A DNA stretch of 32,000 bases from Phycisphaera mikurensis NBRC 102666 (GTDB lineage Bacteria; Planctomycetota; Phycisphaerae; Phycisphaerales; Phycisphaeraceae), in assembly GCF_000284115.1 (NCBI RefSeq), contig NC_017080.1, positions 390,001 through 422,000 of the forward strand, written 5' to 3'. Positions 17,234 through 20,470 of this stretch are shown one piece after another. The position numbers were made by a program, and so were the translations under genes. Under the pieces are notes generated by a model. The model saw nothing but the letters and a program-made list of their open reading frames with translations. It was not told the origin of the DNA and did not search any database. Numbering within the stretch: position 1 is the stretch's first letter; the number at the start of each line of letters is the position of its first letter.

Positions 17234-17240
<7 letters not shown>

Positions 17241-17603
17241 CGCTCGCGTCGCTGCGCTCGCTCTTGTTGCTCGTTTGCGCCTCCGCCGGGGGGGACCCCC
17301 GGCTGCGGGTGGAGCGTGTCGCCACTGCCGGCATGCGCCGGACCGAGCACGGCGCGGGCGGATGTCGAAGGTGCGCCTGGACGCGTCCTCTCCGGGCGTT
17401 CACGCCGCACCGTTCCGCCGCGCAGCGAACCCGCTCCGCCGCCGGCCCCTGCCGACGCAGGCGCACCTTCGGCAACCGCCCGCATCGTGCCCGTTCGAAT
17501 ACGTGCCGGCAGTGGCGACACGCCCCACGCGCAGACCGGGGTCCCCCCGGTCGGAGCCCCCCACGAGCAACAAGAGCGAGCGCAGCGACGCGAGGGTCAC
17601 CCC
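17234..17603. repeat. 370-bp imperfect palindrome (foldback, MITE-like element or giant bidirectional terminator hairpin), complete copy
   Basis: The outer 41 nt (17234-17274, ggggtgacgctcgcgtcgctgcgctcgctcttgttgctcgt) match the reverse complement of 17563-17603 at 40/41. By manual ungapped alignment the next 59 nt pair at 49/59 and the next 46 nt at 34/46. The central ~78 nt are weakly symmetric. Both flanking convergent genes end in GGG TGA inside the two ends. Confidence 0.85.
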
Positions 17604-17862
17604 GCCGCAGGCGGAAGCGCAGCGTCCGCGTCCGCGGCCGCGGCGTCGGCGGCGATCCAGCCGGACATCATCACCATCGGCATGCCGGGACCGGGGTGGG
17701 CGCTGCCGCCGGCGAGGTAGAGGCCGGGCAGCTCGGAGCGGCGGTTGCCGGGTTTGAAGCCGCCGCCGAGGCGGCCGTGGCTGGCGAGGCCGTAGATGGC
17801 GCCGTTGAGGACCCTGTAGCGGTCGTGGATGCCCTGCGGCGTGGGCGCGTTCTCGTAGACGA
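17597..17862 (-). pseudogene. 3' fragment (last 88 codons plus stop) of the CrtI-family gene at 18773-20470, copy 1
   Basis: Encodes IVYENAPTPQGIHDRYRVLNGAIYGLASHGRLGGGFKPGNRRSELPGLYLAGGSAHPGPGMPMVMMSGWIAADAAAADADAALPPAAG. It differs from the intact gene at 8 of 266 nt (L->P, K->R, and 5 synonymous changes). No upstream coding part is present. Confidence 0.85.
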
Positions 17863-18191
17863 TTGCGCCTCCGCCGGGGGGGACCCCCGGCTGCGGGTGG
17901 AGCGTGTCGCCACTGCCGGCACGCGCCGGACCGAGCACGGCGCGGGCGGATGTCGAAGGTGCGCCTGGACGCGTCCTCTCCGGGCGTTCACGCCGCACCG
18001 TTCCGCCGCGCAGCGAACCCGCTCCGCCGCCGGCCCCTGCCGACGCAGGCGCACCTTCGGCAACCGCCCGCATCGTGCCCGTTCGAATACGTGCCGGCAG
18101 TGGCGACACGCCCCACGCGCAGACCGGGGTCCCCCCGGTCGGAGCCCCCCACGAGCAACAAGAGCGAGCGCAGCGACGCGAGGGTCACCCC
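17863..18191. repeat. palindrome copy 2, lacking the outer left 41-nt arm
   Basis: Identical to 17275-17603 except C for T at the position equivalent to 17334. It keeps the right outer arm (18151-18191). Confidence 0.85.
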
Positions 18192-18450
18192 GCCGCAGGC
18201 GGAAGCGCAGCGTCCGCGTCCGCGGCCGCGGCGTCGGCGGCGATCCAGCCGGACATCATCACCATCGGCATGCCGGGACCGGGGTGGGCGCTGCCGCCGG
18301 CGAGGTAGAGGCCGGGCAGCTCGGAGCGGCGGTTGCCGGGTTTGAAGCCGCCGCCGAGGCGGCCGTGGCTGGCGAGGCCGTAGATGGCGCCGTTGAGGAC
18401 CCTGTAGCGGTCGTGGATGCCCTGCGGCGTGGGCGCGTCCTCGTAGACGA
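18185..18450 (-). pseudogene. 3' fragment (last 88 codons plus stop) of the CrtI-family gene, copy 2
   Basis: Same as fragment 1 except for one substitution (N->D: IVYEDAPTPQG...). The track ORF 18185..18697 extends it into palindrome sequence only. Confidence 0.85.
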
Positions 18451-18779
18451 TTGCGCCTCCGCCGGGGGGGACCCCCGGCTGCGGGTGGAGCGTGTCGCCA
18501 CTGCCGGCACGCGCCGGACCGAGCGCGGCGCGGGCGGATGTCGAAGGTGCGCCTGGGCGGGTTCTCTCCGGGCGTCCACGCCGCACCGTTCCGCCGCGCA
18601 GCGAACCCGCTCCGCCGCCGGCCCCTGCCGACGCAGGCGCACCTTCGGCAACCGCCCGCATCGTGCCCGTTCGAACACGTGCCGGCAGTGGCGACACGCC
18701 CCACGCGCAGACCGGGGTCCCCCCGGTCGGAGCCCCCCACGGGCAACAAGAGCGAGCGCAGCGACGCGAGGGTCACCCC
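18451..18779. repeat. palindrome copy 3, lacking the outer left arm, directly downstream of the intact desaturase-like gene
   Basis: It has 7 substitutions relative to copy 2. Three fall in arm positions (WC<->wobble interconversions). Four lie in the weakly paired centre. Confidence 0.85.
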
Positions 18780-20470
18780 GCCGCAGGCGGAAGCGCAGCG
18801 TCCGCGTCCGCGGCCGCGGCGTCGGCAGCGATCCAGCCGGACATCATCACCATCGGCATGCCGGGACCGGGGTGGGCGCTGCCGCCGGCGAGGTAGAGGC
18901 CGGGCAGCTCGGAGCGGCGGTTGCCGGGTTTGAAGCCGCCGCCGAGGCGGCCGTGGCTGGCGAGGCCGTAGATGGCGCCATTGAGCACCTTGTACCGGTC
19001 GTGGATGCCCTGAGGCGTCAGCGCGTTCTCGTAGACGATGCGGTCGCGGATCCCGGCCATCCCGGCGGTCGTCTCCAGCTTGTCGAGGATCGTCTCGCGG
19101 TAGCCCCGGAAGAGCCGGCCGTCGCGGTTCCAGTCCTGCCCGGGCCGCAGGTACGGCGCGTGCACCAGCACGTACAGCGCCTCGCCGCCGGCGGGCGCGG
19201 TGAAGGTGGTGGGGTCGCCGCCTGCTTCCTCGGTGGCGGCGGTCGCCGCGAGGTACGCCGTGGGATCGGGGGCGACCTCGCCGCGGCGGTAGATGTGCTC
19301 GAACTCCTCTTCGGGATCGCGCGAGAACACGAAGTTGTGGTGCGCGAGGTGCTCGTAGCGCTTGTCGAGCCCGAGGTAGAGCACGACGCCCGAGCACGCG
19401 GGCTCGGGGTCGCCGGCACCGGCTCTGCCGTCGCGGTGCGTCTCCCCGCCGAGCAGCTCCCGCTGGGTGCGGACGCTGTCGGCGTTGCTGACGACGATCG
19501 GGAAGCCCAGCCGCGTCCCGTCGGCCAGCTCCACGCCCGCGACGCGACGCTTCCCGCGGCCGGCGCTCTCGCCGTGGATGCGCGTCACCTCGTGCTCGGG
19601 CCCGAGCCTGAAGGCGACGCCCAGCTCCTCGGCGAGCTTCTTGAGCGCCAGCGGCACCGCCCGCGTCCCGCCGCGCGGGTACCACACGCCGCGGTCGACC
19701 TGCATCGCCGCGATGCCGCAGAGGATCGCCGGCGCCTGGCCCGGGTCGCTGCCGACGTACTGCGTGTAGTGGTCGAGCATCTGCGCGACGCGGTCGTCGG
19801 GCACCATCTTCCGGACCGTGCCCGCCACCGTCGACCACATCCGCATCGCCGCGACGTCCCTCAGCGTCGAGGCGTTCATCGTGCCGCCGAAGCTGAACAT
19901 GTCCTTCAGCCCGCCGATCGACTTCCAGAAGTAGAAATCGTCGCTGATGCGGTGCAGCTTGCGGGTGTAGTCGACGAAGCCGGCGTAATCGGCGGCCGCC
20001 TTCCCGTCGCCGGTGAACCGCTCCAGCTCATCGCGCATCGCGGCGACGTCTTCTTTCAGGTCCAGGACCTGATTGCCGTCCGGCCCGTCGCTGCTGCCGT
20101 GCCGGCTCCCGCGCTTCGCGTCGAAGAAGCACCGCCACTGCGGGTCGTCGAGCCGGACGAGGTCGAGCCGTTCGTGCAGGTCCACGCCGGCTTCCCGGAA
20201 GACCCGCTCGAGCACCTCGGGCACCGTCAGGATCGTCGGCCCCATGTCGAAGCGGAAGGTCCCGCCGTCGGGGCCCTGGCCCTCCAGCCGCGCGGCTTTG
20301 CCGCCGGCCCAGGGGTTCTTGTCGAAAACGGTGACCTCGAAGCCGCGGGCCGCGAGCGTGACCGCCGCGGTGAGGCCCGCGAGGCCGGCGCCGACCACCG
20401 CGGCCCGGCGGTCGTTCCTGTTCGTGTCGGCGGCGGCGGGGGGGGGCGGCGGGGTCGCGAGCGCGGTCAT
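18773..20470 (-). CDS. phytoene desaturase family protein (CrtI/CrtD/CrtN-like FAD-dependent desaturase)
   Basis: ATG at 20470 within track ORF 18773..22717. Motifs AAVVGAGLAGLTAAVTLAARGFEVTVFDKNPWAGGKA, FRFDMGPTILTVP, LYLAGGSAHPGPGMPMV. It is clearly different in sequence from the 3863-5524 paralog. Confidence 0.85.
   Translation of the reverse strand: MTALATPPPPPAAADTNRNDRRAAVVGAGLAGLTAAVTLAARGFEVTVFDKNPWAGGKAARLEGQGPDGGTFRFDMGPTILTVPEVLERVFREAGVDLHERLDLVRLDDPQWRCFFDAKRGSRHGSSDGPDGNQVLDLKEDVAAMRDELERFTGDGKAAADYAGFVDYTRKLHRISDDFYFWKSIGGLKDMFSFGGTMNASTLRDVAAMRMWSTVAGTVRKMVPDDRVAQMLDHYTQYVGSDPGQAPAILCGIAAMQVDRGVWYPRGGTRAVPLALKKLAEELGVAFRLGPEHEVTRIHGESAGRGKRRVAGVELADGTRLGFPIVVSNADSVRTQRELLGGETHRDGRAGAGDPEPACSGVVLYLGLDKRYEHLAHHNFVFSRDPEEEFEHIYRRGEVAPDPTAYLAATAATEEAGGDPTTFTAPAGGEALYVLVHAPYLRPGQDWNRDGRLFRGYRETILDKLETTAGMAGIRDRIVYENALTPQGIHDRYKVLNGAIYGLASHGRLGGGFKPGNRRSELPGLYLAGGSAHPGPGMPMVMMSGWIAADAAAADADAALPPAAG

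Follow-up and report, generated by a model that had tools for sequence, protein, structure and literature searches.

Structure of the Array

The locus analyzed here lies in a window of 32,000 nucleotides (positions 390,001 to 422,000 of contig NC_017080.1) taken from the finished chromosome of Phycisphaera mikurensis NBRC 102666. In this window a sodium:dicarboxylate symporter gene and a CrtI-family (phytoene desaturase family) gene are transcribed towards each other, and between them lie a long palindrome, or foldback, and three head-to-tail direct copies of a 588-bp unit (U1, U2, and U3), which were identified by repeat finding and direct comparison and are spaced by 588 + 588 nt (Table 1). 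A chance origin of the repeats is ruled out, as a 28-mer from the outer arm of the foldback has four occurrences against zero expected. Tandem Repeats Finder is blind to the array solely through its longest period, 500.

The arms of the foldback (148 nt, 84% complementary) enclose a 78-nt loop, and its RNA is predicted to fold with a minimum free energy of -316 kcal/mol (z = -19). The last codons and the TGA stop of the symporter gene fall within the outer left arm. The outermost 42 bp (17232-17273) pair almost perfectly as a stem and are not included in the duplicated unit, which starts just inside it; the left breakpoint of the duplication (17274|17275) coincides with the internal loop that separates the outer stem from the inner one. 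Each unit joins the remainder of the palindrome to the 3' end of the desaturase gene, and the full gene is reached from U3 only. The triplication and this anatomy, namely a palindrome part plus a 266-nt gene end with a complete gene at the third copy alone, had been described in an earlier reading of the sequence without database searches (hereafter, the sequence-only reading), and both are borne out, the units lying exactly at the coordinates given there.

The same reading had taken the junctions between units to be illegitimate, and the parental sequences agree. Both novel junctions are identical and create the string GTAGACGATTGCGCC. At the join the gene reads ...GTAGACGA|TGCGGTC and the left arm reads ...TGCTCGT|TTGCGCC, so that the parents have 0-1 nt in common. 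Read from these parental sequences, the founding junction is illegitimate, without extended homology.

Table 1. Features of the tandem array, the foldback and the flanking genes (window coordinates; unit positions are counted from the first nucleotide of a unit)
Feature	Position	Strand	Evidence and remarks
Sodium:dicarboxylate symporter gene, BAM02531.1	15810-17240	+	Pfam SDF, E = 1e-99; exact P. mikurensis protein match
Complete left arm of the repeat family	17220-17423	+	nhmmer E = 2e-46; arm alignment
Foldback, left and right arms head to head	17232-17605		Arms 17232-17379 and 17458-17605; loop 17380-17457
Unit 1 (U1)	17275-17862		Copy still attached to the outer left arm; unit comparison
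Right arm in U1	17414-17619	-	nhmmer E = 6e-51
Orphan 3' fragment 1	17597-17862	-	88 codons + stop; derived Leu to Pro and Lys to Arg
Novel junction 1	17855-17870 (17862|17863)		GTAGACGA|TTGCGCC
Unit 2 (U2)	17863-18450		Hybrid; U3-like at position 60, U1-like from 75, private change at 577
Truncated left arm in U2	17863-18011	+	Outer 43 nt missing
Right arm in U2	18002-18207	-	nhmmer
Orphan 3' fragment 2	18185-18450	-	Derived changes of fragment 1 plus Asn to Asp
Novel junction 2	18443-18458 (18450|18451)		Identical to junction 1, GTAGACGA|TTGCGCC
Unit 3 (U3)	18451-19038		Coding part is the genuine 3' end of the desaturase gene; unit comparison and ortholog alignment
Truncated left arm in U3	18451-18599	+	Unit comparison and nhmmer
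Right arm in U3	18590-18795	-	Gives the intact gene its ...LPPAAG* tail and stop; orthologous to the post-desaturase arm in L010
Intact CrtI-family (phytoene desaturase family) gene, BAM02535.1	18773-20470	-	TIGR02734, 338.6 bits (cut-off 238.1); exact P. mikurensis protein match
Inner left arm	unit 1-105
Loop	unit 106-183
Full right arm	unit 184-331
Last 266 nt of the desaturase gene	unit 323-588	-	88 codons + stop; 9-nt overlap with the right arm

Independent Assemblies

An Illumina draft of the same strain (GCA_014207395.1) agrees with the finished chromosome without a mismatch (100%) over flanks of 11,687 and 9,646 bp and has a gap of 98 N over the array (window 17497-18883). The left draft contig ends exactly 96 nt past unit position 126 and the right one exactly 96 nt short of unit position 530, these two positions being the last sites that separate U1/U2 from U3. 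This is the behavior expected of a de Bruijn assembler when diverged copies merge into shared sequence, and thus both unit edges were represented in the independent reads by two or more diverged copies. The Logan contigs of run SRR12223476 stop in the outer arms, at a 32-nt perfect inverted repeat. One of them (L001) has the U3 bases at 530-577 and the U1/U2 bases at 377 and 292, a mixture compatible with bubble popping towards the more abundant, two-copy U1/U2 variant.

Differences among the Units and the Orphan Gene Ends

U1 and U2 differ at 2/588 sites (unit positions 60 and 577), in agreement with the sequence-only reading. U3 differs from either of them at 16 sites, the earlier estimate having been about 15. 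At position 60, U2 has the base of U3, while at all 15 later variable sites it has the bases of U1, to which it adds a private change at 577. Being such a hybrid, U2 is the middle unit that an unequal exchange between positions 60 and 75 of two ancestral copies is predicted to leave. The two-step history proposed before, an old duplication and then a recent amplification, therefore holds and is sharpened by the hybrid. The differences are further clustered at the unit edges, with 13 of the 16 falling in 185 nt around the ancestral junction (positions 1-126 and 530-588; binomial P = 6e-5). The derived state is found on the junction-side copies at the sites that could be polarized, and the unit centers of the older pair are almost identical.

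For the coding part, the three segments were aligned with four orthologs from related loci (L008, L009, L010, and L011; 86-91% protein identity). The fragments differ from the gene at eight nucleotides, five of them synonymous, exactly as counted earlier. The changes CTG to CCC (Leu to Pro) and AAG to AGG (Lys to Arg), both at residues invariant across the four orthologs, are derived in the fragments, as are CGG to CGC and GTG to GTC. The gene copy has acquired three derived synonymous changes, all to T-ending codons (CCT, AAT, and GCT). The derived changes at invariant residues mark the orphan fragments as decaying pseudogene relics on the evidence of this alignment, and the suggestion that they descend from a different allele was rejected on the same polarization. 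The proportion of synonymous differences is explained by relaxed constraint in the fragments together with purifying selection in the gene. Nor do the fragments resemble the recombination reservoir that had been considered, since they are near-identical to one another (1/266 nt apart, 99.7% identity) and, mostly, to the gene.

The Arm Repeat Family

The palindrome had been taken for a single foldback element. It is better seen as two head-to-head arms, of about 205 nt each, that belong to a repeat family of the Phycisphaera lineage and recur in relatives. The arm alignment and profile were built from eight copies (three from the window and five from L010); L011 has the beginning of a ninth. 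The window has four full-length arms in all. L010, whose desaturase is 86% identical to that of P. mikurensis, has arms at four sites within 11 kb, namely three single arms, one of which directly follows the desaturase, and one full palindrome. In L011 the beginning of an arm follows the desaturase, and no arm was found after the desaturase in L008 and L009. The eight-arm profile found no further copy in the remainder of the window or in 18 kb of additional P. mikurensis flank (L017 and L018; about 50 kb in total). It also found none in the relative loci L008, L009, L016 (merely a frameshifted haplotype of L008), L020 (21 kb), and L021 (12 kb, from the sample of L010).

Across loci the arms are 74-85% alike, and the desaturase arm of P. 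mikurensis is 83% identical to its ortholog in L010, a value near the 84% found for the gene. The repeat family must therefore be old, with its copies clustered locally. Six of the seven arms overlap the stop codon of a co-oriented upstream gene, and in four cases the frame passes through TCCGCCTGCGGCGGGGTGA and ends in ...PPAAG* or a close variant. The remaining two arm frames run on for over 60 codons without a stop, and selection that disfavors long tails is therefore sufficient to account for the frame and orientation of the surviving half-elements. The arm alignment contains a single small hairpin, GACCGGGS-GAA-SCCCGGTC, with compensatory changes. The reading frames of the arms are disrupted by indels, and a protein search with one translated element frame gave no homologs. 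The ends of the element run into GGGGTGA stop-codon contexts, which are native in L008 too, and no flanking direct repeat could be defined.

Outside these loci, a scan of genome contigs with an outer-arm 20-mer gave six single matches in unrelated phyla, P. mikurensis itself not being among them; these are attributed to chance because none extends beyond 21-38 nt. A metagenome scan with a gapped pattern from the inner arm gave no match, and neither did a viral scan. An outer-arm 25-mer matches two homologous metagenome contigs of lower GC content, L012 (4901-4925) and L013 (191-215), inside a transposase-like gene. The stretch agrees with an L010 arm at 33/37 nt with no similarity beyond, and it may be due to chance or to a shared origin; it was treated as chance. 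In L010, 47 nt from the outer end of an arm are locally duplicated in tandem, between the palindrome and an FeS-assembly gene (8878-8949).

The desaturase gene is followed by RsfS in the relatives (L008, L009, and L010), whereas in P. mikurensis it faces the convergent symporter across 17241-18772; thus synteny breaks at the element. A role of the repeats as substrates for recombination would be compatible with this break. The symporter loci of the relatives (L020 and L021) have no arms and bear unrelated palindromes instead. In both cases the palindrome is long and follows the orthologous symporter gene, at 11420-11700 in L020 and 1815-2240 in L021. The orthologous symporters themselves have unrelated, variable C-terminal tails that diverge after ...AARVV. 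The lineage appears prone to long palindromes at the 3' ends of its genes.

A separate structure of this kind was seen in L008 at about 9860-10000, where a GTAG-tagged double hairpin (GTAGCAGGCACAC...GTGTGCCTGCTAC) spans the stop codon of an ORF166 ortholog. On either side of the double hairpin stand direct copies of about 18 nt from the 3' end of that gene, a small-scale parallel to the 266-nt gene-end duplication.

Origin of the Array

The array is real, and we suggest that it is a probably neutral segmental tandem duplication, a scar that arose next to a long palindrome, was then partially homogenized, and recently gained a third copy. Among the three readings offered earlier, it is the amplification scar that fits. 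According to this scheme, an illegitimate join with 0-1 nt of homology first brought gene position 19038 up against position 17275, which lies immediately within the outer stem (42 bp) of the 374-nt palindrome, thereby doubling 588 bp that comprised the inner left arm, the loop, the right arm, and the last 88 codons. Replication stalling or template switching at the hairpin is the likely cause, and the palindrome is probably what provoked the duplication. The two copies then diverged at their edges with the middle kept near-identical. Either of two causes would fit this clustering of differences: conversion between the copies, whose effect fades near the limits of homology, or locally error-prone synthesis during the founding event. 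The orphan gene piece took changes at invariant residues, and the functional copy accepted synonymous ones only. Finally, as the hybrid pattern shows, a recent unequal crossing-over between unit positions 60 and 75 gave the third copy, with the private change at 577 following later. The array would thus be a by-product of palindrome instability, not a device.

Two further observations support this reading. The lists of flanking genes contain no transposase, reverse transcriptase, or integrase. Comparison of the orthologous locus, which had been proposed as a check and was carried out here, shows that L010 has the arm and a single gene end, the triplication being specific to P. mikurensis in this comparison. 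Three points weigh on the other side. The hairpin-stalling step is deduced from the location of the breakpoint, and a copy number of three rather than two is attested by the finished assembly alone. Further, tandem duplications in bacteria are normally lost quickly by homologous recombination, and a purely neutral array would not be expected to survive long enough to gather 16 differences, which this reading does not account for.

The second of these points bears on the possibility that the three units of the finished chromosome are an erroneous expansion of one or two during assembly. Short-read assemblies of the same strain fail to span the region, U1 and U2 are so similar that a third copy is hard to prove, and L001 continues through the point where U3 and U1/U2 would be expected to merge. 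We nevertheless regard such an artefact as unlikely, because the draft ends at 96 nt beyond positions 126 and 530 require the novel junction together with two different versions of both edges, L001 combines U3-type with U1/U2-type bases, and the hybrid pattern of U2 is biologically coherent, unlike an assembler product. The persistence of the array hints at retention, as would be the case if the three stacked hairpins served as a bidirectional terminator, insulator, or RNA-stabilizing block between the convergent symporter and desaturase genes. The hairpins are indeed highly stable, the left outer arm is able to pair with any of the three right arms, and relatives bear unrelated long palindromes after the orthologous genes. 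However, no canonical intrinsic terminator (GC-rich hairpin plus T-run) was found in 16800-19400, Rfam gave no match whether the gathering threshold or E <= 1 was applied, and single arms fold no better than shuffled sequences (z = 0.35, -1.6, and -1.8). Moreover, the unit contains 266 nt of decaying coding sequence, and the relatives do with one arm or none. A scan of the array region also gave no sigma-70-like sites. The stacked terminators envisaged in the sequence-only reading thus find no counterpart in these scans, and a selectively retained functional array appears improbable.

In another scenario the arm family itself is mobile or self-copying and targets gene 3' ends, the 588-bp unit being a by-product of rolling-circle or template-switch read-through that captured a gene end. 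The arms at four sites within 11 kb of L010, mostly over stop codons, would fit, as would the 47-nt arm-end duplication in that locus and the 18-nt gene-end duplication that flanks another palindromic insert in L008. We consider this very unlikely: the similarity of the arms (74-85%) speaks against a recent burst, about 50 kb of P. mikurensis, the 12 kb of L021, and the loci L008, L009, L016, and L020 yielded no transposase, clear target-site duplication, or extra copy, and the in-frame stop and the orientation are explicable by selection, only one frame giving a short tail. A more far-reaching version, to which we give only a slim chance, would make the ~205-nt arms an undescribed element of Phycisphaerae that seeks gene 3' ends, joins at ...GGG-TGA contexts, rewrites the C-terminal tail (...PPAAG*), and spreads locally by template switching, so that the 588-bp array would be a copying product caught in the act of capturing 88 host codons. 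The layout, with 3' fragments adjoining an expressed gene, is superficially also that of a silent-cassette or diversity system, in which the orphan fragments would be gene-conversion donors or the C-terminus of the enzyme would undergo mutagenesis like that of a diversity-generating retroelement (DGR). This is extremely improbable. The target is a cytoplasmic flavin adenine dinucleotide (FAD) enzyme, variation is limited to 41 nt, and the two near-identical fragments carry damaging changes. The coding-strand bases of the fragments at the mismatches are C, C, C, G, C, G, C, and C, and a DGR is excluded because this series has no adenine and the gene lists have no reverse transcriptase nearby. 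Overall, there is no evidence in the scanned sequence for a cassette, DGR, or canonical intrinsic-terminator function.

Comparison with Known Systems

A RecA-independent illegitimate join followed by unequal crossing-over has reportedly been described for Salmonella and E. coli in the literature of Roth, Andersson, and Lovett. The array resembles such bacterial tandem duplications in its head-to-tail units, its one repeated novel junction without real homology, its hybrid unit, and a breakpoint by a palindrome. Unlike most described bacterial duplications, which are large, young, and unstable, it has diverged by 2.7% and has no obvious selected gene in the unit. The fragments, 1/266 nt apart and derived from a CrtI-family FAD enzyme, are not the diverse surface-protein donors of pilS- or vls-type silent cassettes, and an integron attC origin was likewise discarded.

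Concerning the arms, the termini of repetitive extragenic palindromic (REP) sequences often give the stop codon of flanking open reading frames (ORFs) (PMC3733652), and stop-codon donation by palindromic repeats is thus already described, for REPs. The arms share with REPs, bacterial interspersed mosaic elements (BIMEs), and REPINs (PMC3733652) the location of palindromic repeats at gene 3' ends and the ability to supply a stop codon. They differ in length (about 205 nt, against 20-40 nt for REPs), in having no GTAG or CGTC tag, and in their low, locally clustered copy number, and no gene for a REP-associated tyrosine transposase (RAYT) was seen. Miniature inverted-repeat transposable elements (MITEs) such as Correia/NEMIS, RUP, ERIC, and Nezha are similar in being non-coding, a few hundred nucleotides long, with long inverted termini, located at or over coding sequences, and present at several sites in a relative. 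The arms have inverted termini (148 nt, 84% complementary) and no coding capacity, their frames being broken. Many dispersed copies and a cognate transposase would also be expected of MITEs; apart from the four sites in 11 kb of L010, however, no arms were found in about 50 kb of P. mikurensis beyond this locus, the 12 kb of L021, or the 21 kb of L020, nor was a transposase with matching ends. Also unlike MITEs, no cognate insertion sequence was found, half-elements are as common as full ones, and the copies are old. No target-site duplication was found either, the ends of the element merging into stop-codon contexts. Finally, as far as they are described where PMC3733652 cites them, Rickettsia palindromic elements are inserted in frame in genes. 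The arms are like them in that a palindromic repeat adds translated codons to a host protein (the ...PPAAG* tail). On that same description they are unlike them in giving just the last 5-7 codons and the stop, with no internal insertions.

The array is therefore a new example of known processes and not a new genetic system, and we see in it no pointer to a new defence, diversification, or regulatory system. The type of event is ordinary and its history unusually readable: the junction, the homogenized centers, the diverged edges, the decay of the fragments, and a datable crossover together form a clean natural record of the birth and ageing of a duplication, of use to genome annotators and to students of duplication evolution. 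Short-read assemblies break at the array, which is a warning for assembly and annotation. The arm family, from which housekeeping genes receive their stop codons and brief C-terminal tails, adds modestly to the description of palindromic repeats in Planctomycetota.

Other Features of the Window

The accessions BAM02531 and BAM02535 flank the array at 17241-18772, and hence three coding sequences (CDS) are probably annotated between them, inside the array. Nine candidate ORFs within the array were absent from the protein collection and are not the annotated CDS. Minus-strand ORFs of 170 codons that join element antisense sequence to a gene fragment exist, and their use is unsupported. If a CDS is called within the units, it is probably spurious.

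A second CrtI-family gene lies 13 kb upstream of the array (3863-5524, plus strand; TIGR02734, 484 bits). The dnaN gene is found about 10 kb from the array, at about 28100-29227 on the minus strand; the GC skew of the window shows no clear switch and gives no usable replication direction. The window further contains six copies of a 46-nt REP-like palindrome, CCGCGGACCG-N26-CGGTCCGCGG, at 2019-2064, 8075-8120, 14235-14280, 22767-22812, 27044-27089, and 31168-31213. The same REP-like family occurs in the P. mikurensis flanks (L017 and L018) and in the relatives L008 and L010.

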